A stretch of 41,415 bases of DNA from a virus (Duplodnaviria > Heunggongvirae > Uroviricota > Caudoviricetes). The stretch is from IMG/VR virus record IMGVR_UViG_2579778884_000014; one strand, given 5' to 3'. A program made the position numbers and the translations under genes. Below the pieces are notes generated by a model. It saw only the letters and a program-made list of their open reading frames with translations. It was not told the origin of the DNA and searched no databases. Position 1 is the first letter of the stretch, and each line of letters starts with the position of its first letter. Positions 1 through 41,145 of the stretch are shown piece after piece.

Positions 1-555
1 TCATTTATCTCCGACCGGAAACCTCTTATACAAAGTCGATATGCCAACATCATAGATGATCGCCACCTTCTGGCGAGGAACTCCTGATGCAATTAATCGT
101 CCGGCCTGTGCCCATTGTTCTGGTGTAAGTTTGGGACGTCGTCCACCAATTCGTCCCTGTGCGCGAGCAGCTTCCAGGCCAGCTTTTGTTCGTTCAACAA
201 TCAGTTCTCGTTCCATTTCAGCCAGGGCACCCATCACATGAAAGAAAAAACGCCCCATCGGTGTGCTGGTATCAATAGCATCCGTCAGGCTGCGAAAATT
301 AACGCCACGTTCGCGCAACTCCTCAACCAGAATGACCAGATGCCGCATACTACGCCCCAGCCGATCCAGCTTCCAGACAACCAGAGTGTCACCTGCCGAT
401 AATGTCCTGAGCAGTTTTTTCAGTCCCGGCCTTTCGGACTTTGTACCGCTTATTTTGTCTTCAAAAATCAGCTCGCATCCTGCACAGTTCAGCGCATTAC
501 GTTGTAGATCTGTGTTCTGGTCATTTGTTGACACACGTACATAGCCAATAAGCAT
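1..555 (-). CDS. pin: Serine DNA invertase (Pin/Gin/Hin/Cin family)
   Basis: Minus-strand ORF ending at the window edge; translation from the internal ATG (MLIGYVRVSTNDQNTDLQRNAL...) matches the canonical N-terminus of Pin/Gin-type invertases. ATG at 555 has a GGGAGA Shine-Dalgarno, the upstream ATG at 591 does not. Lies beside an inverted-repeat-bounded tail-fibre segment. Confidence 0.9.
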   Translation of the reverse strand: MLIGYVRVSTNDQNTDLQRNALNCAGCELIFEDKISGTKSERPGLKKLLRTLSAGDTLVVWKLDRLGRSMRHLVILVEELRERGVNFRSLTDAIDTSTPMGRFFFHVMGALAEMERELIVERTKAGLEAARAQGRIGGRRPKLTPEQWAQAGRLIASGVPRQKVAIIYDVGISTLYKRFPVGDK

Positions 556-610
556 GGTAGATCTCCCTGACAAAAGCAGGAATGATGCCATTTGCTCGTT
601 ATTTCTGCAT

Positions 611-634
611 TTTCATAAACGTTGGTTTGGGAGA
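611..634. repeat. Invertase crossover site, left boundary of invertible segment
   Basis: TTTCATAAACG-TT-GGTTTGGGAGA; the 13 bp TTGGTTTGGGAGA (622..634) is the exact reverse complement of TCTCCCAAACCAA at 2451..2463. Resembles gix/hix/cix-type sites with an AAAC..GTTT core around a central dinucleotide. Confidence 0.7.
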
Positions 635-1079
635 AGGTGCTCCAGCTATTGGCGTTCCGTTCTTCTGGCCGTCCGCCGCAATGCCAAATTCTGTCATCGA
701 CAGCTGGTCCGGTATGGTGTTTTTGAAGTTCAACGGGGCGAAATTTTCTGCCACTGATTACCCTGTGCTGGCGAAAGTGTTTCCTTCGCTGGTATTACCT
801 GAAGCCCGCGGTGATTTCATTCGTATCTGGGATGACGGGCGAGGTGCAGATGGTGGTCGCGAATTATTAAGCTGGCAGGAAGCTACAAACTTTTCTCAGT
901 TTGCCGGGAATATAGGCGGAGGTGCGGGACACGCAATTGACTTTCATGATGGCATCGCCGGAAATCAGCCAGGATTTTCACGATTTAATTTCACCAGTAA
1001 CTCTGTGGGTGATGGTGTGAATTTTGTTGCTGTCAGACCGCGAAATATTGCATTTAACTTTCTGGTGAGGGCTAAATAA
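624..1079 (+). CDS. Alternate tail-fibre C-terminal variable segment, not joined to the fibre N-terminus in this orientation
   Basis: Open frame starting at the left crossover site with no credible own start; encodes ...NVGLGEG... at the site, matching ...ENLGLGEAA... at the right-hand site inside the expressed fibre gene. Stop overlaps the ATG of the downstream assembly gene (TAATG). Confidence 0.6.
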   Translation, partial: GLGEGAPAIGVPFFWPSAAMPNSVIDSWSGMVFLKFNGAKFSATDYPVLAKVFPSLVLPEARGDFIRIWDDGRGADGGRELLSWQEATNFSQFAGNIGGGAGHAIDFHDGIAGNQPGFSRFNFTSNSVGDGVNFVAVRPRNIAFNFLVRAK

Positions 1080-1672
1080 TGAAACCTGTTTTTGATGAAA
1101 ATGGGCTGGCTACAGTGCCGGGCGATATGCGTTGTTTTTATTATGATGCTGAAACAACTGAGTATACGGGCTGGTCTGATGAATATATTAATACTGGCGT
1201 AAGTATGCCCGCCTGTTCCACTGGTATTGACCCGGGCGAAAACATTCCGGGAAAAGTGGCAGTATTTACGGGTAAGGGATGGAGCCATGAAGAAGACCAT
1301 CGCAATGAGACTGTTTACTCAACAGAAAATGGTGCAGCTGTTACAGTGGATTATATCGGTGCCATCAAAGACGGTTATGTCACGCTTTCACCGTTAACGC
1401 CATACGATAAATGGGATGGTGAGAAATGGGTGACGGATACCGAGGCACAGCATAGCGCCGCAGTAGGCGCGGCAGAAGCACAGCGCCAGTCGCTGATTGA
1501 TGCAGCAATGGCTTCCATTAGTCTGATTCAGCTGAAATTACAGGCCGGGCGGAAACTGACGCAGGCAGAAACAACCCGGCTTAACGCTGTGCTGGATTAC
1601 ATTGACGCGGTGACGGCAACAGATACCAGCACCGCGCCGGATGTCATCTGGCCTGAACTGACGGAGGCGTAG
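1079..1672 (+). CDS. Tail-fibre assembly protein, alternate copy
   Basis: 197 aa ORF directly after the alternate fibre segment, GGTGAGGG Shine-Dalgarno; position and size typical of Tfa/Mu U-prime type fibre chaperones. Converges on the minus-strand copy with a 29 bp 3-prime overlap. Confidence 0.7.
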   Translation: MKPVFDENGLATVPGDMRCFYYDAETTEYTGWSDEYINTGVSMPACSTGIDPGENIPGKVAVFTGKGWSHEEDHRNETVYSTENGAAVTVDYIGAIKDGYVTLSPLTPYDKWDGEKWVTDTEAQHSAAVGAAEAQRQSLIDAAMASISLIQLKLQAGRKLTQAETTRLNAVLDYIDAVTATDTSTAPDVIWPELTEA

Positions 1673-2084
1673 GCCATTCAATATCTGGCGCACTGGAAGT
1701 ATCGACCATTTCCAGTGCGTCCAGGTAATCCAGCCACAAATTATATTGCGCCAGTTCCTCACCTTTCAGACGACCAATAGCCGCTTTACCAGGCCATTGT
1801 TTACTGTTCATATAATCGTTGGCCTGATTAATCAATTGCTGCTTTTCCAGTTCGGCTGCAGCAATCTGTTCCTCATGCGTTGGTGGTGGAATTTCAGACC
1901 ATGCAGGAAAACCATTTTCTCCAGCGATACGGATTTTTCCTTCCGGCGGTAATCCGGAAAACTCAATATACACTTGCTCATCAACTTCAACAGCATCATC
2001 TGGCCATGAGTCAGCTTGCGTGTAATCCTCTTTCATCTCCAAGGGATAGAAAGAGTTTGTAGTCGCGGAATATATGTAATTCAT
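1644..2084 (-). CDS. Tail-fibre assembly protein, copy in the expressed orientation
   Basis: 146 aa ORF immediately downstream of the expressed fibre gene; the C-terminal halves of the two assembly proteins are similar (…LDY.DA…TS.APD..WP… in both). Confidence 0.75.
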   Translation of the reverse strand: MNYIYSATTNSFYPLEMKEDYTQADSWPDDAVEVDEQVYIEFSGLPPEGKIRIAGENGFPAWSEIPPPTHEEQIAAAELEKQQLINQANDYMNSKQWPGKAAIGRLKGEELAQYNLWLDYLDALEMVDTSSAPDIEWPTPPSVQAR

Positions 2085-5840: not shown

Positions 5841-6236
5841 TCATGAAACTCTAGCAGACTTTAGCTGTTCCCAGCGCTCAAAATAGAGTTCAGCAGCCTC
5901 GATTGCATCCTGTCCCATCTCTTTCGAAACAGTCACATTCGTCAGATCATAGTCAGCTTCATTTCTAGCATCCCGCCACTGGCGAAGTACGAAAGCTAGG
6001 GATTTCAGTGTATTTGTCGGGTATGGCTCTGATTTGCACTCTGAGGGCGTTGACATATAACCCACAGTATTTTTGTGATGCTCATGGGTAAAATGCGGTA
6101 TGGCAGTAAGTGAGCTAATAGACTCATGTAACATACTGTAATACGCCCTTGAGATAGCGCTTCGAAATCCACTCTCAATATTTTCAGACAGACATAATCG
6201 AGCGGTATCGAGAATCTGATTGCTAGTTACCGACAT
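5841..6236 (-). CDS. Hypothetical protein, cargo gene 2; possible HEPN-like fold
   Basis: 131 aa ORF overlapping the upstream cargo gene by 14 bp; contains ...SRAYYSMLH... (R-x6-H) and a second LRQWRDARNEADYD helix. AT-rich relative to flanking tail genes by eye. Confidence 0.7.
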   Translation of the reverse strand: MSVTSNQILDTARLCLSENIESGFRSAISRAYYSMLHESISSLTAIPHFTHEHHKNTVGYMSTPSECKSEPYPTNTLKSLAFVLRQWRDARNEADYDLTNVTVSKEMGQDAIEAAELYFERWEQLKSARVS

Positions 6237-6996
6237 GGTAGCTCACCCCCGTATGCAACTGACGCGGAGAGGTAAATCTAGCTAACAGGGAACAATCATC
6301 CAGTTTAGATTCAGCGCAGACTCTATCAGCCAAGTCGAAGTTCATTTTGGCAATAGTTTTAGGCTCAAGATTTTTAATATCAACAACATAGCAACCGCTT
6401 CCACTAAGCTGAACGAAACCTGTCGTAGCCTTGTATTCACTTAGCAAGCCCCAGATTATGGATGCTAAGGTCTGGAACTGTTCCTTCGAGCACTGTGTGG
6501 CGCTATAGAAATTATCCATTTCTGCAAGGAGTTCTTCTTTGTGCTTCATAGCATTACTCCTGCCTTCTGATTCAGAAAGAAGCTTAATGTGCTCTTCCAT
6601 ATAAAATTTTAACTGTTCACGCTCGCCGCAACGGTACGCCCAACTGTATGCGTTGTGACTAAAGAGTTTTGTCCGATACTTCTTTGCCAGCGGGACATAG
6701 ACATCCTTGAGTTCATTATAGCTAAATGTATTAATTAAAATGTGATGATAGTGCATTGCCAACGTTACATCGTTTACTTCTAGGCTTATCCTGAGATAAC
6801 GTAACGCGCTTTCAATCTTTCCGGTTATTGCATCCAGATAAGATAGTGCAATGTTGGTAGCAGGCGTTGGAGAGACAGAAAGTTCCTCTCGAATTTTCTT
6901 TTCAGTGAAGGGATCTAAACTTTCCCTATCCAATAGAAGCGCATTGAATTGTTCAATATATTTTTGCGCTTTTTCTAATGGGATGCCTGCCGCCAT
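6223..6996 (-). CDS. Hypothetical protein, cargo gene 1
   Basis: 257 aa ORF with no recognisable virion-protein or enzyme motif; AT-rich by eye; preceded by a promoter-like element and a weak AAGAGA Shine-Dalgarno. Confidence 0.7.
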   Translation of the reverse strand: MAAGIPLEKAQKYIEQFNALLLDRESLDPFTEKKIREELSVSPTPATNIALSYLDAITGKIESALRYLRISLEVNDVTLAMHYHHILINTFSYNELKDVYVPLAKKYRTKLFSHNAYSWAYRCGEREQLKFYMEEHIKLLSESEGRSNAMKHKEELLAEMDNFYSATQCSKEQFQTLASIIWGLLSEYKATTGFVQLSGSGCYVVDIKNLEPKTIAKMNFDLADRVCAESKLDDCSLLARFTSPRQLHTGVSYHVGN

Positions 6997-35401: not shown

Positions 35402-35406
35402 TCGCT

Positions 35407-35610
35407 ATGACTGTAATCAAAACGCATACCGGAACGGTTATTACCCGCACCGGTGAAAAGCAGGTGCAATTGCATCAAAACGCGACAACGTGGGTGGCTG
35501 GCCCAAAAGAGTATTACTACAAAGACACTGGCCGCCGCGGTGGTGCTGTCGGTGTCCGCACTCGTCTGGTGCTGAGCAGCATCCGCCCAATCGAAGCAAA
35601 GCAGGAGTAA
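35407..35610 (+). CDS. Hypothetical small protein
   Basis: 67 aa ORF directly after the polymerase gene. Confidence 0.4.
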   Translation: MTVIKTHTGTVITRTGEKQVQLHQNATTWVAGPKEYYYKDTGRRGGAVGVRTRLVLSSIRPIEAKQE

Positions 35611-35615
35611 CCCCT

Positions 35616-35837
35616 ATGTCATTTAAATATCGGGACAGTCCGCTTTATTACCGGGCTGCGAGGGAGGCCTTGCGCCTTGAGCAGTCCGGCGAATATGACC
35701 GGGCAGCGAAGGTCTGGGCCAAGGCTAACCGCCAGTCACGTAACGAACTGAATCAGGACTGGAGCGAACGCCGGTCTGATTTTTGTCTGATGCAGAACAT
35801 GCGCGAAAAGCGTAAGGCGGTGAGCGATGACTTGTGA
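35616..35837 (+). CDS. Hypothetical small protein
   Basis: 73 aa from the ATG at 35616 with an AGGAG Shine-Dalgarno 8 nt upstream; the track ORF extends upstream without support. Confidence 0.45.
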   Translation: MSFKYRDSPLYYRAAREALRLEQSGEYDRAAKVWAKANRQSRNELNQDWSERRSDFCLMQNMREKRKAVSDDL

Positions 35838-36309
35838 GCAGACCATTCTTGACATGTGCTGCGGCTCTCGTATGTTTTGGTTCGACAAGGAGGACAAGCG
35901 CGCCGTGTTCAGTGATATCCGCGCCGAGCAGCATGAGCTTTGCGACGGTCGCCAGTTGGTTATAAGTCCGGACCTTATAGCTGATTTCCGCGCCCTTCCC
36001 TTTGCCGATAACACTTTCCCTGTCGTCGTTTTCGATCCGCCGCACCTCGAGCGCGTCGGCGATAACGCATGGATGAGGAAAAAGTACGGGCGGCTCAACA
36101 AAGAAACATGGCGCGATGATCTTCGCGACGGCTTCGCCGAAGCATTCAGGGTATTGCGGCCCCACGGTGTACTCATATTCAAATGGAACGAAACGCAGAT
36201 CCCGGTAAGCAATATCTTGGCGCTGACCGACGAGAAGCCGGCCATATGGCAACGAACCGGAAAAGCCGACAAAACCCACTGGGTTATTTTCGTCAAAGGT
36301 GTGGAATGA
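35827..36309 (+). CDS. Small DNA methyltransferase (phage Dam-like, DPPH motif)
   Basis: 160 aa; SAM-binding motif I-like ...ILDMCCGSRMFW... and catalytic motif IV ...VVVFDPPH... Confidence 0.65.
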   Translation: MTCEQTILDMCCGSRMFWFDKEDKRAVFSDIRAEQHELCDGRQLVISPDLIADFRALPFADNTFPVVVFDPPHLERVGDNAWMRKKYGRLNKETWRDDLRDGFAEAFRVLRPHGVLIFKWNETQIPVSNILALTDEKPAIWQRTGKADKTHWVIFVKGVE

Positions 36310-36602
36310 TGGCCTACGAACGTGAAAGCCTTATCGAAAAGCACCTCGTCGCCGAAGTGAAAAAGGCTGGCGGGGTCGCCTTTAAGTTCGTGTCACCCGG
36401 TCGCCGCTCGGTACCGGATCGCATTGTCCTGCTACCCGGCGGTCGCATCGTCTTTGTCGAATGCAAAGCGCCAAGCAAACCACCACGGCCTGACCAGTTA
36501 CGCGAGCACGAACGGCTGCGCGCGTTGGGCTTTACCGTGGTGGTATTAGATAGCAAAAATCTGGAGGGGATATTGTGCGGGGAGCCTATTACAACGAAAT
36601 AG
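36306..36602 (+). CDS. VRR-NUC domain nuclease
   Basis: 98 aa from an ATGATG start overlapping the upstream stop; ...VSPGRRSVPDRIVLLPGGRIVFVECKAPSKPPRPDQLREHERL... fits the VRR-NUC core. Confidence 0.7.
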   Translation: MMAYERESLIEKHLVAEVKKAGGVAFKFVSPGRRSVPDRIVLLPGGRIVFVECKAPSKPPRPDQLREHERLRALGFTVVVLDSKNLEGILCGEPITTK

Positions 36603-37603
36603 ACCCTAACGCAGCACAATGGCTGCGTAACCTTATTGCTGCAGGTCATATCGCCCCGGGTGAAGTTGATGAAAGGAGTATCGAAGATGTCGCACCAGAC
36701 GACTTGCGCGGATTCACACAGTGCCATTTCTTCGCCGGGATCGGCGTCTGGTCTTATGCTCTGCGTCTGGCCGGATGGCCGGATAACAAACCGGTCTGGA
36801 CAGGAAGTTGCCCGTGCCAGCCTTTCAGCTCGGCTGGTAAAGGCGCTGGGTTTGATGACGAGCGGCACCTATGGCCAGCACTATTCCACCTCATCAGCGA
36901 GCGACGCCCTAAGCTGGTATTTGGCGAACAGGTTGCGGGAGTCAATGCCTGGTTCGATCTTGTACAAACTGACGTGGAAGCAGTGGACTACGCCTTTGGG
37001 CTTGTCCCGTTTCCGGCTGCGGGCGTCGGTGCCCCGCATATCCGAGATAGAGCGTATTGGGTGGCCGACGCCAGCGGCGAGCGATCACAGCGGTGGCGAA
37101 AGCGCCTCAATAGCATTGAGGAAGATGTCTGGAGATCGTCGACCGTCCGGCAACACGCTACACAGCTCCCTGCGGAATTTTGCTCACCTAGCGGGGTGGT
37201 ACACCCCAACCTGCAACACAAACCCACAGCCGGAGACAAAACGCGGTCTAGAAACCTTAGCGGGACTATCCAGATTAGCGGGATGGCCGACAGTGACGAC
37301 GATCGACAACAACCAAGTTCGTGCCGAGGGCGCAGCGGCCAATCATACCGAACGGGGAACGACCCTCGGCGGCGCTGCGAGAATCTGCGGCCCAATACGA
37401 TTAACGGCTGCTGGGATGGTGCTGACTGGCTCCTCTGCCGGGATGGTCGCTGGCGGCCAGTTGAATCCGGCACATGCCCGTTGGCTAATGGGATTACCTC
37501 CAGAGTGGGACGACTGCGCGCCTACGGCAACGCGATAGTCGCACCAGCTGCCGCAACATTCATCCGCTCGTTTATGGAATGCGCAGGATACGACCTTATT
37601 TAA
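36575..37603 (+). CDS. DNA (cytosine-5)-methyltransferase, reading frame uncertain in the middle
   Basis: GTG start with GGAGGGG Shine-Dalgarno; motif I ...FFAGIG..., motif IV ...PCQPFS..., motif VI-like ...GEQV..., motif VIII-like ...HIRDRAYWV..., motif X ...YGNAIVAP.... The overlapping ORF 36636..37538 also looks coding. Confidence 0.7.
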
Positions 37604-37920
37604 TGCCACTCACATCTGGCATGATACCGTCCAGAAGGTAATTGCTTATATACAACGGAGCCGCCCATGGCATAAGTATAAGCATGAAGTTTTGTCCAGA
37701 AGTCCCCATAAACTAGTATTGGGGCTAAAAATTTTGGATCGCTAACCATAGATGTAGCAGGAAGCTCGAAACCTTTAGAAAGAATGTTTACCAGTGAAGG
37801 GTAATTTTCAAAATCAGTGCTATTCCCGCCCACCTCTAAAGCATCCAGTTCAAAGTCGAGCACTCCACCATTTTTGTAATACTCCGGAACAGTTAACCCT
37901 GATGTTAACAAAGTAGCCAT
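37600..37920 (-). CDS. Hypothetical protein, antisense insertion
   Basis: 106 aa with a perfect AGGAGG Shine-Dalgarno 8 nt upstream of the ATG; AT-rich island; convergent with the C5-methyltransferase, 4 nt 3-prime overlap. Confidence 0.6.
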   Translation of the reverse strand: MATLLTSGLTVPEYYKNGGVLDFELDALEVGGNSTDFENYPSLVNILSKGFELPATSMVSDPKFLAPILVYGDFWTKLHAYTYAMGGSVVYKQLPSGRYHARCEWH

Positions 37921-37954
37921 TAAACAATCCTCCTGAATTTTAAAGGGTTACATT

Positions 37955-39349
37955 ATGCCCAAAGTTTTCACGCCTCGCCCCTACCAAGATCTAATTATCA
38001 ACCACGAAATCGACATTCACCGCTGCAACATCTGGGCAGGGATGGGGATGGGTAAAACCGTAGCGACACTCACCACGCTGGAAGATCTTTTCATGGCGGG
38101 CTCAGAGACACAGCCCGCGCTGGTCCTCGCGCCCCTACGCGTTGCAGCAAGCACATGGCCGGATGAAGCGCTGAAATGGGGGCATCTGCGCAATATCGAG
38201 GTGCAGCCGATTGTTGGTAACGCCAAAGCACGCTCTGCAGCGCTGGCGAACAGCAACGCGAGCGTGTTCACCATCAACTACGATAACCTTGTCTGGCTGG
38301 TTGAGGAATTGGGAGAACGATGGCCGTTCGGTACTGTCATTCCAGATGAAAGCACCCGGCTAAAATCCTTCCGGCTGCGAGGTGGTGGTAAGCGCGCGGC
38401 GGCGCTGGGCAAAGTGGCGCATAAGTATGTCCAGCGCTGGATAAATCTCACCGGTACGCCAGCACCGAACGGCCTGGTAGATTTGTGGGGACAATTGTGG
38501 TTTGTGGACCAGGGGCAACGTCTCGGGCGCACTTACGGCGCGTTTACCTCACGCTGGTTCAACTCGATACAGTTTCCGGGGCAGAGCTGGACCAAACTGG
38601 AGCCGTTTGCTCACTCACATGCTGAAATACAGCGAGCGTTAGCCGATGTGACCCTCTCGCTGGATGCGGCCGACTGGTTCGATATCAAAGACCCCATCCA
38701 TAACGTAATCCGCGTGGATATGCCGCCGAAGGCCCGTCAGCAGTATCGTGAAATGGAAAAGGAAATGTTCCTCGAGCTGAACGGCGAAGGCATCGAAGCA
38801 CCAAACGCCGCGGCAAAGACACTGAAGTGTCTGCAAATCGCCAGTGGCGCAGTATACACAGACGACACCGGAAGTTGGTCAGAACTGCATGACACCAAAC
38901 TACAAGCGCTGGACAGCATACTGACCGAAGCAGCTGGCGCACCTGTGCTGGTTGCTTATCACTGGAAACACGATCTTGAACGCTTGCTTAAAGCATTCCC
39001 TCGCGGTCGTCACCTCGACCAAGATCCACAGACACTGCGCGACTGGAATTCCGGAAAGATTCCTGTTCTCTTTGCACACCCAGCCAGCGCGGGCCACGGT
39101 CTGAACATGCAGGACGGCGGAAACATACTGGTATTTTTCTCACACTGGTGGGACCTGGAGCAGTATCAGCAAATTATTGAACGTATCGGCCCCACCAGGC
39201 AGATACAGGCCGGACACAATCGTCCGGTATTTATTCACCACATTATTGCGGCCGACACTATGGACGAAATGGTGATGGAGCGGCGCAACTCAAAACGAAC
39301 AGTGCAGGACATCCTGCTCGATGCCATGAAAAAGAGAGGTATAGCATGA
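37955..39349 (+). CDS. SNF2-family helicase
   Basis: 464 aa; Walker A ...GMGMGKT..., DExx-type ...VIPDESTR..., motif III ...LTGTP..., C-terminal helicase motifs ...HGLNMQDGG... and ...ERIGP... Confidence 0.85.
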   Translation: MPKVFTPRPYQDLIINHEIDIHRCNIWAGMGMGKTVATLTTLEDLFMAGSETQPALVLAPLRVAASTWPDEALKWGHLRNIEVQPIVGNAKARSAALANSNASVFTINYDNLVWLVEELGERWPFGTVIPDESTRLKSFRLRGGGKRAAALGKVAHKYVQRWINLTGTPAPNGLVDLWGQLWFVDQGQRLGRTYGAFTSRWFNSIQFPGQSWTKLEPFAHSHAEIQRALADVTLSLDAADWFDIKDPIHNVIRVDMPPKARQQYREMEKEMFLELNGEGIEAPNAAAKTLKCLQIASGAVYTDDTGSWSELHDTKLQALDSILTEAAGAPVLVAYHWKHDLERLLKAFPRGRHLDQDPQTLRDWNSGKIPVLFAHPASAGHGLNMQDGGNILVFFSHWWDLEQYQQIIERIGPTRQIQAGHNRPVFIHHIIAADTMDEMVMERRNSKRTVQDILLDAMKKRGIA

Positions 39350-39546
39350 GCGAGAAACCCGACGATTTACTCACCCCAGATGAAGTATGCCAAAAGTTAG
39401 GTATTACACAGAAAACGCTATGTGAGTGGAATATTAAGCATCGTCATCGGGCTATCCTGGCACCAATTCGTTTCAGTGCAAAAGTAGTTCGTTATGAGCG
39501 CCGAAATGTCGACGCTTTTATTCAAAAGTGTCGCAGCCAGTATTAA
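39346..39546 (+). CDS. Excisionase / AlpA-like HTH protein
   Basis: 66 aa; ...LLTPDEVCQKLGITQKTLCEW... fits AlpA/Xis-type HTH; next to and convergent with the integrase. Confidence 0.55.
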   Translation: MSEKPDDLLTPDEVCQKLGITQKTLCEWNIKHRHRAILAPIRFSAKVVRYERRNVDAFIQKCRSQY

Positions 39547-40940
39547 CCTCGCCGCCGTAGCAATGCAACCTGCGCAAGTATGCTCCGCTCGTGAGCCTCG
39601 AAAGCTTCGCGCTTTAACGCAATCTCTTCCTGTAAAATCTCATCAGAAAAGTCGTAATGTTCTGCCATCGGGTCATCTGACTTGCTGGAGTGGTGAAGGC
39701 AAAGGAGGCTGATTTCCCTTCGGTCTGATCGGGAATAGCCTCTTTCCTTCATCAAGGCAATAACATTGCTCTTAAGGAATTTACGGCACATCGTATTAAA
39801 TGCACCGTCTTTCCCTTTAACAGTCCCATCATGTTTTATTCCTTTTACAGCCCCGTCCGGGCTGTATGTTTTCACCAGCTTATCCAGTGATCGTTTTGAA
39901 AATGGCTGCATTGGATCACGTGGCTGCAAAAATACATAATCCCTGTTGCACTCAGGAACTGAATCACGCCAGGCTTTCTGCTCGTCGATAATCCGCCGGA
40001 TCTCAGGCGTTATCGGCAGGCGGAAAGCCTTTTGTGTTTTCATAGCCCCTCGCATGCCGATAACCCCTTCCGGATAAACAATTTCACCAGCCTCCTCGTG
40101 AACGTAGTCCCAGCGCAGGTTATGGACATTAATCGGACGAACGCCAGTGATGATCATGAAGCGAACAGCATTCTTCTGGTGTACAGAGGTGCAGGCAGCA
40201 ACATTGAGCCAGAGTCGGGCGATTGATTCAATATCGGTAAAAAGCCGTGTGGGGGTAGGTTTCTGTATGCGGGAGGAAACATAATCATCTGGCAGACTGG
40301 CGGCAACATTGCGGCCGTTGCAAAGAGTAGGTGCGCAGAACTTCCAGAACCGACGGAGCTCGGCAAACAACTCCAGGGCGTTATTGTTCGAGCGAGTGGC
40401 GATCCACTCGTCCAGCACTTCCACCAGCCGATTGTATGTTACGTCGCTGAACACCTCACGCTCGCCGAACGTTGCTTTAATCCGGTCGATACGCACCCCG
40501 TAGGTTGTGAAACTGTCCGGGCTCAGCTTCTGCCGGGCGACTTTGGCTTTGAGGTCATCCCGGTACATTTCCAGCGCTGCATGTACTGACTCTGCCCGCA
40601 AGCCACAGTCAGCCATACCTAGCGCTTTTTCGCGCGCCAGCTGGATAGCGAGCTCCGGCCACTCGCCGAGCTTTTTACCCTTGAGGCCCATCTTTTTTGG
40701 AAACTCGGCGTAAAATGTAACCTTACCGGCTTTGCTGAAATCGATACGGAGATAGTTCTCTTTTTCGTATTTGGAACGGCGAGCCACGCCGGAAGCAGCG
40801 AGGATGATTTTGGCAGCAGCAACACAGATTTTCATGTGTGCGCTGGTATAGGGGGGTTTACAGGCGTCCCATTTTTCAGATGCGGCTAAAACATCGTCAT
40901 TATTGGGGCTATCCGGATTATGTGTTACAGTGCGCGGCAT
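39543..40940 (-). CDS. int: Tyrosine integrase
   Basis: About 465 aa; C-terminal catalytic region includes ...TGVRPINV..., ...LLCLHHS... and ...EHYDFSD.... Start at the ATG at 40940 (AAGGA Shine-Dalgarno; track start at 40946 is a TTG). Terminal position beside a host gene. Confidence 0.85.
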   Translation of the reverse strand: MPRTVTHNPDSPNNDDVLAASEKWDACKPPYTSAHMKICVAAAKIILAASGVARRSKYEKENYLRIDFSKAGKVTFYAEFPKKMGLKGKKLGEWPELAIQLAREKALGMADCGLRAESVHAALEMYRDDLKAKVARQKLSPDSFTTYGVRIDRIKATFGEREVFSDVTYNRLVEVLDEWIATRSNNNALELFAELRRFWKFCAPTLCNGRNVAASLPDDYVSSRIQKPTPTRLFTDIESIARLWLNVAACTSVHQKNAVRFMIITGVRPINVHNLRWDYVHEEAGEIVYPEGVIGMRGAMKTQKAFRLPITPEIRRIIDEQKAWRDSVPECNRDYVFLQPRDPMQPFSKRSLDKLVKTYSPDGAVKGIKHDGTVKGKDGAFNTMCRKFLKSNVIALMKERGYSRSDRREISLLCLHHSSKSDDPMAEHYDFSDEILQEEIALKREAFEAHERSILAQVALLRRRG

Positions 40941-41145
40941 TCTCAATCCTTATCTGCGTAGGCGCAGAAAACAAGCTCACACATACAAGTCTTTTCTACG
41001 GGACAAAATGCAATGTGTTGCGGTTTTGTGTTGCTGGACTGAGTTTATCAAGGTTAAATGCACTGGATCAACATACAGTAAGTTAATGACAGTAAAACAT
41101 ACAAACTCGATACAACTTACTGATTTTAAAATGATTTAACGGTAA

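Follow-up and report, generated by a model that had tools for sequence, protein, structure and literature searches.

The viral record IMGVR_UViG_2579778884_000014 (IMG/VR; Caudoviricetes) is a stretch of 41,415 nucleotides, referred to here as the window. On its minus strand, between genes for a DNA cytosine-5 (C5) methyltransferase and an SNF2-family helicase, lies a gene for a protein of 106 amino acids (aa). This open reading frame (ORF) is real, conserved, and mobile as a cassette. It is tentatively read here as horizontally acquired prophage cargo (a 'moron') encoding a binding protein that would act in phage-phage or phage-host conflict, with a role in defence or exclusion favoured.

The locus

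The ORF list of the window contains the ATG-initiated ORF that the preliminary description, made from the sequence alone, had reported on the minus strand (Table 1). RefSeq annotates its product as a hypothetical protein and the flanking genes as a DNA cytosine methyltransferase and an SNF2-related protein, in agreement with the identities proposed for them. The translation signal is also as described, with AGGAGG (37934-37929 as read on the minus strand) placed 8 nt ahead of the start codon in the layout AGGAGG-ATTGTTTA-ATG; the minus-strand sequence around the start reads ...TTCAGGAGGATTGTTTAATGGCT.... The pattern AGGAGG-N8-ATG occurs a single time in the 41.4-kb window, against 0.24 occurrences expected, and at least one match is found in 18 of 100 shuffles. 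Across an alignment of homologous loci, GGAGG or GAGG is kept at this position in most of them, while Klebsiella aerogenes has GGAAT.

Table 1. Position and setting of the 106-aa gene in the window.
Feature	Coordinates	Strand	Remarks
VRR-NUC nuclease gene	36309..36602	plus	Left border of the slot, conserved throughout the prophage family
DNA cytosine-5 methyltransferase gene	36575..37603	plus	Left neighbour here; outside the cassette; itself an optional insertion relative to other genera
Low-GC cargo cassette	37597..37975		ORF, 34-nt spacer, and ribosome-binding site (RBS), start and first few codons of SNF2
Convergent stop-codon overlap TTATTTAA, 4 nt	37600..37603		Left junction of the cassette
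106-aa gene (11.8 kDa, pI 5.15)	37600..37920	minus	ATG start; RefSeq coding sequence WP_000212683.1; member of PHROG 28127
Upstream region that would hold the promoter (unmapped)	37921..38042	minus	Inside SNF2 5' coding DNA
Shine-Dalgarno sequence AGGAGG	37929..37934	minus	8 nt before the ATG at 37920-37918
SNF2-family helicase gene	37955..39349	plus	Right border of the slot, also conserved; divergent from the 106-aa gene
Integrase gene	39543..40946		
yfhL	from 41155		Chromosomal gene beside the integrated prophage

At its 3' end, the gene overlaps the convergent methyltransferase gene by the 4 nt originally claimed: the methyltransferase TAA occupies 37601-37603 on the plus strand and the TAA of the 106-aa ORF 37602-37600 on the minus strand. 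The AT-rich island seen at the outset is equally clear, as guanine-cytosine (GC) content is 0.412 over positions 37601-38000 compared with 0.593 and 0.580 in the adjacent 400-bp bins. The ORF itself has a GC content of 41.7% (34.6% at third codon positions), compared with 50.7% for the window.

Because only 34 nt separate the start codons of the 106-aa gene and the divergent SNF2 gene, the promoter of the 106-aa gene must fall within SNF2 coding DNA. The best -10-like elements are CATAAT at 37957-37952, which overlaps the SNF2 ATG, and GATAAT at about 38008-38003, which sits about 85 nt upstream of the 106-aa gene; both are accompanied by a weak -35. An Rfam scan over positions 37000-38600 returned nothing meaningful.

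A conserved and unannotated protein family

The 106-aa protein matches PHROG 28127 over its full length (residues 1-106 on profile positions 1-106 of 106; E=1.7e-59), and this is the sole PHROG matched by 54 aligned relatives. Twelve homologue clusters, all from Enterobacterales, were found in a word-indexed search; 11 are exactly 106 aa long and one is truncated. Between lineages, the proportion of nonsynonymous differences (pN, 0.09-0.23) is well below that of synonymous differences (pS, 0.53-0.85), and dN/dS is about 0.06-0.15 where computable. The ORF is thus conserved and under purifying selection.

More distant relatives were recovered by an exhaustive profile search of 1.84 billion representatives, which yielded 56 clusters at E<=1e-3 and 24 at E<=1e-10, nearly all of them 102-122 aa long. 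The size of the family is therefore given as at least 56 clusters at 50% identity. A further search added 65 proteins, including some from Rhizobium, Hydrogenophaga, and gammaproteobacterial metagenome-assembled genomes (MAGs). Members are also present in Dyella and on Burkholderia megaplasmids, and the family ranges across the Alpha-, Beta-, and Gammaproteobacteria. Some relatives are elaborated: in P0059 the domain is duplicated in tandem, which suggests dimerisation; P0030 has an added cysteine-rich C-terminal tail (CxxC...CxxxxC); and P0069 has an added 60-aa extension.

Conserved positions in the family are G18, G19, E38, L47, G50, F51, W75, G87, Y91, and A101, and the recurring motifs are GG.L.FE, GFELPP, GD.WTR, and GG.I.YK.L..G.Y.A. 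The invariant or near-invariant residues are Gly, Trp, Tyr, Phe, Leu, and Ala, together with one Glu. Since no catalytic signature is conserved, these residues do not seem to point to catalysis, and binding of another macromolecule appears to be the most likely role. The protein has 11 acidic and 7 basic residues (net charge about -4), and no transmembrane segment or signal peptide was seen when the sequence was judged by eye.

AlphaFold2 (AF2) modelled the protein with a predicted local distance difference test score (pLDDT) of 94.9 and a predicted template modelling score of 0.86 when given the 54-sequence alignment, and with a pLDDT of 79.9 when given a 13-sequence alignment. The order of elements in the confident 54-sequence model is strand-helix-strand, several helices, and a final strand hairpin. 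The protein is read as small, soluble, and alpha/beta, with a new-looking domain. The best Foldseek match in PDB, the GHKL domain of CheA P4, was non-significant (E 0.11, TM-score 0.36), and the best in BFVD had an E of 0.057. A GHKL (Bergerat) ATP-binding fold was considered and rejected on that superposition. Within PDB and BFVD, the predicted fold is without a recognised relative.

Annotation searches agree with the initial remark that the protein has no recognisable motif. Pfam gave only noise for the 106-aa protein and its 54 relatives, PADLOC-DB v2.0.0 gave 0 families at E<=10 for the 106-aa protein, and the family profile found nothing below E=0.1 among PDB sequences. The sensitive homology and structure searches that had been suggested as a check have thus delineated an unannotated family with no fold match in PDB or BFVD. 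A search of the literature for WP_000212683, phrog_28127, the prophage family, or the slot described below found nothing on the gene.

These data bear directly on the possibility that the ORF is spurious or a decaying, functionless reading frame, as its hypothetical status in RefSeq and the lack of a known domain match might imply. Such an explanation sits poorly with the exact 106-aa length of 11 of the 12 Enterobacterales clusters, the excess of pS over pN, the matching size of the distant relatives in 56 clusters, the high pLDDT of the AF2 model, and a consensus RBS that is unique in the window. Judged by this conservation, a spurious origin appears effectively refuted, with a negligible probability left to it.

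A cassette in a polymorphic prophage slot

The window matches the chromosomes of E. coli strains such as BH100N, F11, and E62 at 100% identity, and represents an E. coli prophage integrated beside yfhL. The prophage encodes a LexA-type repressor. Its plus strand carries a replication block comprising genes for DUF2800, DUF2815, Nmad5, DNA polymerase A, ANR, an S-adenosylmethionine (SAM) methyltransferase, VRR-NUC, the C5-methyltransferase, and SNF2, and its minus strand carries the lysis and structural genes of a contractile-tail phage. In its replication module, the prophage is similar to the APSE and BPP-1 phages. The SNF2 helicase shares 95% identity with that of vB_EcoM-606R2 and related induced E. 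coli phages, 75% with P41 of APSE, 74% with its counterparts in Yersinia phages YeP4-6, and 66% with Bbp47 of Bordetella phage BPP-1.

Variation at the site was surveyed with a 701-bp probe across the ORF against 5,426 complete E. coli genomes. The probe matched 95 of these, and the ORF itself was covered in 20, which come from human, rat, dog, goat, otter, and chicken-meat sources. In the other 75 prophages, homology ends at about 37597-37600 and restarts at about 37960-37997, corresponding to megablast breakpoints at probe positions 197-200 and 561-598. Alignment of the junctions showed that slot variants differ from the stop codon of the left-hand gene to a few codons inside SNF2, with the SNF2 RBS and ATG included. 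The 106-aa gene therefore shows the attributes of a moron in being patchily present among close relatives between conserved genes and in having a base composition unlike that of its neighbours.

A range of other cargo is found in the slot. Antisense BstA genes are present in E. coli O103:H2 12009, SJ7, and UPEC 26-1 (PADLOC E=2.5e-110 for 12009 and 1.4e-115 for UPEC 26-1), and B771 has an antisense three-gene cassette that includes PDC-S42 (PADLOC E=4.7e-40). Antisense genes of unknown function encode proteins of 236 aa in DEC5B and 2013C-4465, 265 aa in XH993, 195 aa in M-17, and 164 aa in Yersinia phage YeP4. The slot of STEC435 instead holds co-oriented Arc, Arc, and Rha genes, and that of APSE-1 holds a co-oriented Ant gene and a regulator. 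Kinship of these cargos to the 106-aa family was considered and rejected, as the family profile misses BstA and the other cargo ORFs.

BstA is an experimentally validated prophage-encoded abortive-infection protein of about 307 aa with a KilA-N-like DNA-binding domain, and the validation extends to homologues from E. coli, Klebsiella, and Salmonella (Owen et al. 2021, PMC8585504). Because this validated protein occupies the slot, its cargo can be called frequently defensive; overall, the cargo is accessory, and frequently but not exclusively defensive.

The methyltransferase next to the gene had been central to the earlier proposal, in which placement between a DNA methyltransferase and a helicase suggested an accessory function in anti-defence, immunity, or exclusion. 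The accessory part stands, as the gene is an accessory insertion in a slot that holds other cargo including BstA, and exclusion, immunity, or anti-defence is a reasonable class for it. The argument from adjacency to the methyltransferase fails. In Klebsiella, Pectobacterium, and Enterobacter prophages, the same slot contains a 106-aa gene that is 67-71% identical. It lies 34-35 nt from where SNF2 starts, and its stop codon again shares 4 nt with that of the convergent gene, here VRR-NUC (gene at 6001-6321 versus 6318-6587). The C5-methyltransferase is absent from three such loci (L006, L013, and L014), in which VRR-NUC abuts the cassette, and in E. coli O103:H2 (L002) it is partnered with BstA instead. 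The two genes therefore assort independently. Functional coupling of the 106-aa gene to the C5-methyltransferase was rejected on these grounds, and the link between the two genes is incidental.

Prophage remnants and distant neighbourhoods

Close homologues also occur outside intact prophages, namely in Buttiauxella upstream of an HNH_2 protein, in K. aerogenes upstream of a GHKL ATPase, and in a metagenome upstream of Septu (PtuA E=1.5e-230, PtuB E=5.6e-103). These neighbours were first candidates for independent defence islands, an interpretation that was rejected because SNF2 and VRR-NUC remnants mark the loci as decayed prophages of the same family. In all three copies (L010, L015, and L016), the gene is preceded by 80-480 bp from the 5' end of SNF2; counted over the upstream region that would hold the promoter, the retained stretch is 116-480 nt. 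In K. aerogenes and the metagenome, 105-257 bp of VRR-NUC also survives downstream. The K. aerogenes locus (L015 5879-7769) has been reduced to remnants of SNF2 (5' end), VRR-NUC, and DNA polymerase (89 bp), together with the 106-aa gene and the GHKL ATPase gene, two cargo genes that have outlasted the phage genes. This ATPase shares 92% identity with an antisense cargo protein encoded between the DNA polymerase and VRR-NUC genes of E. coli XH993. Judging from these sequences, the persistence of the gene suggests host-level retention of cargo after the loss of phage functions.

The contexts of more distant members, from Dyella to Burkholderia, are independent of the prophage slot. In Dyella, an integrase gene and Lamassu-type genes are followed by the 112-aa member, genes for proteins of 262 and 454 aa, and an AAA_13 ATPase gene. 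One Rhizobium locus (L048) has a 110-aa member whose gene overlaps by 4 nt with a gene for a 202-aa protein, followed by Gabija (GajA E=1.5e-242) with a UvrD helicase, and patatin. A second (L044) has the same pair, with partners 51% identical, beside PDC-S25 SIR2 and with DNA methylases in the region. On a mobilisable element in a gammaproteobacterial MAG, an integrase gene precedes a 110-aa member and, 15 bp further on, a gene for a 183-aa protein. On Burkholderia megaplasmids, MazE/ChpB is followed at some remove by a 110-aa member, a 23-bp gap, a gene for a 189-aa protein, and then small genes of unknown function. Further members lie beside MNT/HepT and MazE/PIN (L046, an NCBI-deposited contig) and near HsdM and an MbcA/ParS-type antitoxin (metagenome L053), and one has no defence, toxin-antitoxin, or integrase neighbours (metagenome L056). 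The family thus usually keeps company with defence systems, toxin-antitoxin pairs, and integrases.

Outside Enterobacterales, members often head a tightly spaced gene pair, and the downstream partners belong to different, unrelated families; at another family locus, a 36-bp gap separates the member from a downstream gene for a 93-aa protein. No Pfam, PADLOC, or PDB match was found for the partner genes, and no toxin identity is supported for them by a hidden Markov model (HMM). Resemblances by eye to JAB/MPN, HEPN, or PD-(D/E)xK proteins have no HMM or PDB support and serve as leads only. For the E. coli gene, no co-oriented partner is present in the window, as its neighbours are only the convergent and divergent genes described above.

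Two side observations concern the partners. The 202-aa Rhizobium proteins (L044 8327-8935 and L048 8330-8938) contain the motif LLHNHPNGGSLSSFD, or HNRPSG in the other copy, which to the eye is similar to a JAB/MPN metalloprotease signature. On the Burkholderia aenigmatica megaplasmid (L058 5356-12708, with the same arrangement in L059), about 14 small hypothetical genes, almost all co-oriented, follow MazE/ChpB. This run includes the family member and the 189-aa gene, whose product contains RNEMAH (a HEPN-like Rx4H by eye), and is flanked by H-NS, SRAP peptidase, and integrase genes upstream and a Tn3 transposase gene downstream.

Because family members pair with varied downstream genes in other Proteobacteria, a modular two-gene arrangement can be envisaged. 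The domain of about 108 aa might be a promiscuous adaptor with a new fold that pairs with interchangeable effector-like genes in an unrecognised two-gene immunity module, from which Enterobacterales prophages captured the adaptor alone; the probability of this is low. On the same speculative footing, the effector-like partners would include the Rhizobium 202-aa (HNHP...S..D), Burkholderia 189-aa (RNEMAH), and MAG 183-aa proteins. The E. coli copy could then, with comparably little likelihood, work on its own as a single-protein defence or disarm host modules as an orphan neutraliser. Among known systems, this is closest to PanA-type promiscuous antitoxin domains, small upstream partners with swappable effectors in two-gene toxin-antitoxin or abortive-infection modules. 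The Rhizobium, Burkholderia, and two uncultured loci are similar in that a family member leads a closely spaced or overlapping gene pair whose second genes are of unrelated families. They differ in the missing HMM-supported toxin identity of the partners, as does the E. coli copy in being without a partner.

The neighbourhoods also inform two explanations that involve no defensive role. One is that the gene is host-physiology cargo, a fitness factor for stress tolerance, colonisation, or virulence outside any conflict between phages and hosts. Its moron-like low GC and presence/absence polymorphism would fit, as would its occurrence in 20 of 5,426 complete E. coli genomes from varied animal and human sources. 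Against this, the neighbourhoods are dominated by defence, toxin-antitoxin, and integrase genes and not by metabolic or virulence genes, and the protein shows neither the signal peptide nor the membrane segment (by eye) of a surface or secreted factor. A purely physiological role is accordingly rated as improbable, ranking below every other explanation except a spurious ORF.

The second is that the protein, or mere antisense transcription of the cassette, regulates or assists the phage life cycle by tuning replication, induction, or SNF2 expression. The Arc/Arc/Rha and Ant-plus-regulator cassettes of STEC435 and APSE-1 lend this some weight. So does the arrangement of the gene, which is divergent from SNF2 at a spacing of 34 nt and convergent with the upstream operon, such that its transcription would interfere with the replication genes. 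However, no helix-turn-helix (HTH) or other DNA-binding family is matched, and purifying selection on the protein sequence makes an antisense RNA alone insufficient. The intact ORF also persists where SNF2 and the replication genes have been deleted, and distant members are found on megaplasmids and in non-phage islands. A life-cycle role is thus considered doubtful, if somewhat more plausible than a physiological one.

Defence, exclusion, or anti-defence

Two conflict-related roles have most to recommend them. In the first, the 106-aa protein would contribute to defence or exclusion by binding a phage or host component. In the second, it would be an anti-defence factor, a small protein that binds and neutralises a host immune or toxin-antitoxin effector, possibly as a solitary subunit resembling an orphan antitoxin. 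The second is consistent with the size of the protein, its pI of 5.15, and its lack of conserved catalytic residues, with the presence of DNA methyltransferases in the surrounding replication and early-gene module, and with the tight pairs formed by relatives outside Enterobacterales in contrast to the partnerless E. coli copy.

Several observations count against anti-defence. The gene is antisense to the early operon and so would not be co-expressed with early genes. Virulent phages commonly carry anti-defence genes, yet tblastn against 50,697 sequenced phage genomes gave 0 matches for the window protein and for the one distant member used as a second query (P0076). The gene is also kept in prophage remnants and in chromosomal defence islands without phage genes, the partner genes of its relatives have no HMM-supported toxin identity, and its net charge is unlike that of a DNA mimic. 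Anti-defence is consequently regarded as unlikely, while coming next after the favoured role. Defence or exclusion is ranked ahead of it, as a tentative preference, because of the antisense orientation to early genes, the empty phage-genome searches, and the persistence in remnants and non-phage islands.

A defensive mechanism can be sketched from this arrangement. In the lysogen, the 106-aa gene would be driven by its own promoter inside the SNF2 5' end, and the consensus RBS would give efficient translation. The protein could then shield the lysogen from other phages by binding a phage or host component, as BstA does from the same slot in sibling prophages. After induction, the early replication operon would read through the cassette in antisense, which is presumed because SNF2 lies downstream of the cassette on the plus strand, and this convergent transcription may lower expression of the 106-aa gene during the prophage's own lytic growth.

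A number of points weigh against a role in defence or exclusion. The slot is not reserved for defence genes, since the regulators Arc, Rha, and Ant are found there in STEC435 and APSE-1. The close 'island' copies descend from the same prophage slot and do not provide independent contexts, and the association with defence neighbours consists of raw observations. No PADLOC model matches the protein, and anti-defence factors are just as typically small, mildly acidic, and non-enzymatic. Between the remnant-borne copies of L010 and L015 (K. aerogenes; gene at 6001-6321), dN/dS is 0.54 (pN 0.103, pS 0.180). Finally, no sigma-70 promoter or intrinsic terminator consensus was found in 37300-38400 by a low-powered scan, which does not discriminate because it likewise places no promoter between BstA and SNF2 in L002. 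The two remnant-borne copies have SDSW in place of the GDFW motif, and may be under relaxed or diversifying selection.

Comparison with known systems

The closest parallel to the proposed defensive role is BstA. Both are single antisense cargo genes in the same slot, between VRR-NUC or the methyltransferase and SNF2, of sibling prophages, and both are prophage-borne and also occur outside prophages. They differ in size and show no sequence or domain relation, and the 106-aa protein does not match the BstA HMM at E<=10.

Phage morons and prophage defence hotspots are exemplified by old, tin, and fun of P2 and by the P2/P4 hotspots. The cassette is similar in being a discrete extra gene of deviant GC between conserved phage genes that is replaced by other cargo in relatives. 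The classical definition of a moron includes its own promoter and terminator, by which it can be expressed from the repressed prophage. For the 106-aa gene, neither was detected by the low-powered scan, and the 4-nt convergent overlap leaves no room for a terminator.

Small anti-defence proteins of the Acr, Ocr/ArdA, and Gad/Tad types resemble the 106-aa protein in size, in having no enzymatic motifs, and in being encoded on a mobile element alongside DNA-modification genes. The differences lie in the empty tblastn searches of sequenced phages with two members, a pI that is not strongly acidic, and the antisense orientation to early genes. No sequence or fold match to a solved anti-defence protein was found in PDB. 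A DNA mimic of the Ocr/ArdA type, with a pI of about 4 or lower, was specifically rejected in view of the pI of 5.15, the ratio of 11 acidic to 7 basic residues, and the lack of a Pfam or fold match.

The known kind to which the gene belongs is prophage hotspot cargo, and it is best described as a candidate phage-conflict gene. Prophage hotspots have been productive sources of new anti-phage and anti-defence genes, and the slot described here is well delimited by two conserved genes, occurs in about 2% of complete E. coli genomes, and has BstA and PDC-S42 among its known occupants. Its other occupants, the 106-aa gene and the genes for proteins of 195, 236, 265, and 164 aa, are therefore good candidates. 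If the 106-aa protein is active, a very small non-enzymatic protein would join the repertoire, and this would also explain the two-gene modules of Rhizobium and Burkholderia.

Other features of the prophage and its relatives

A second lone antisense ORF, for an 89-aa hypothetical protein (WP_000490741.1; 33012-33281, minus strand), is found where GC content dips between the Nmad5-family and DNA polymerase genes. It has no relation to the 106-aa family, as judged with the family profile. At the corresponding site, relatives in Klebsiella, Pectobacterium, and Enterobacter have small antisense ORFs of 58-62 aa (L007 9217-9396, L013 9102-9278, and L014 10028-10216).

The interval between the DNA polymerase and VRR-NUC genes (35402-36309) is a second variable slot. 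In the window, it contains a 67-aa ORF, the ANR regulator, and a class I SAM methyltransferase. The alternatives seen in relatives are DUF4406, YfbU, a protein that is TIR-like (CAP12-PCTIR), and a 342-aa GHKL ATPase, encoded antisense, that weakly matches the DrmA model of PADLOC (L014 7058-7819, L041 3375-4136, and L038 708-1736).

At the left end of the window (1-1960, where window coordinates equal L051 coordinates minus 1049), a pinE-type invertase gene, cut by the window edge, adjoins oppositely oriented tail-fibre and tail-fibre-assembly genes, which suggests an invertible host-range segment. At the other end, a 66-aa ORF overlaps the SNF2 stop codon (39346-39546, plus strand). It is annotated as an HTH regulator in several related strains, has no annotation in the BH100N record, and is probably an excisionase. 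In Pectobacterium odoriferum (L013 1-1373), a related prophage is integrated beside a DarT/Macro (DarTG-like) pair and a second integrase gene.

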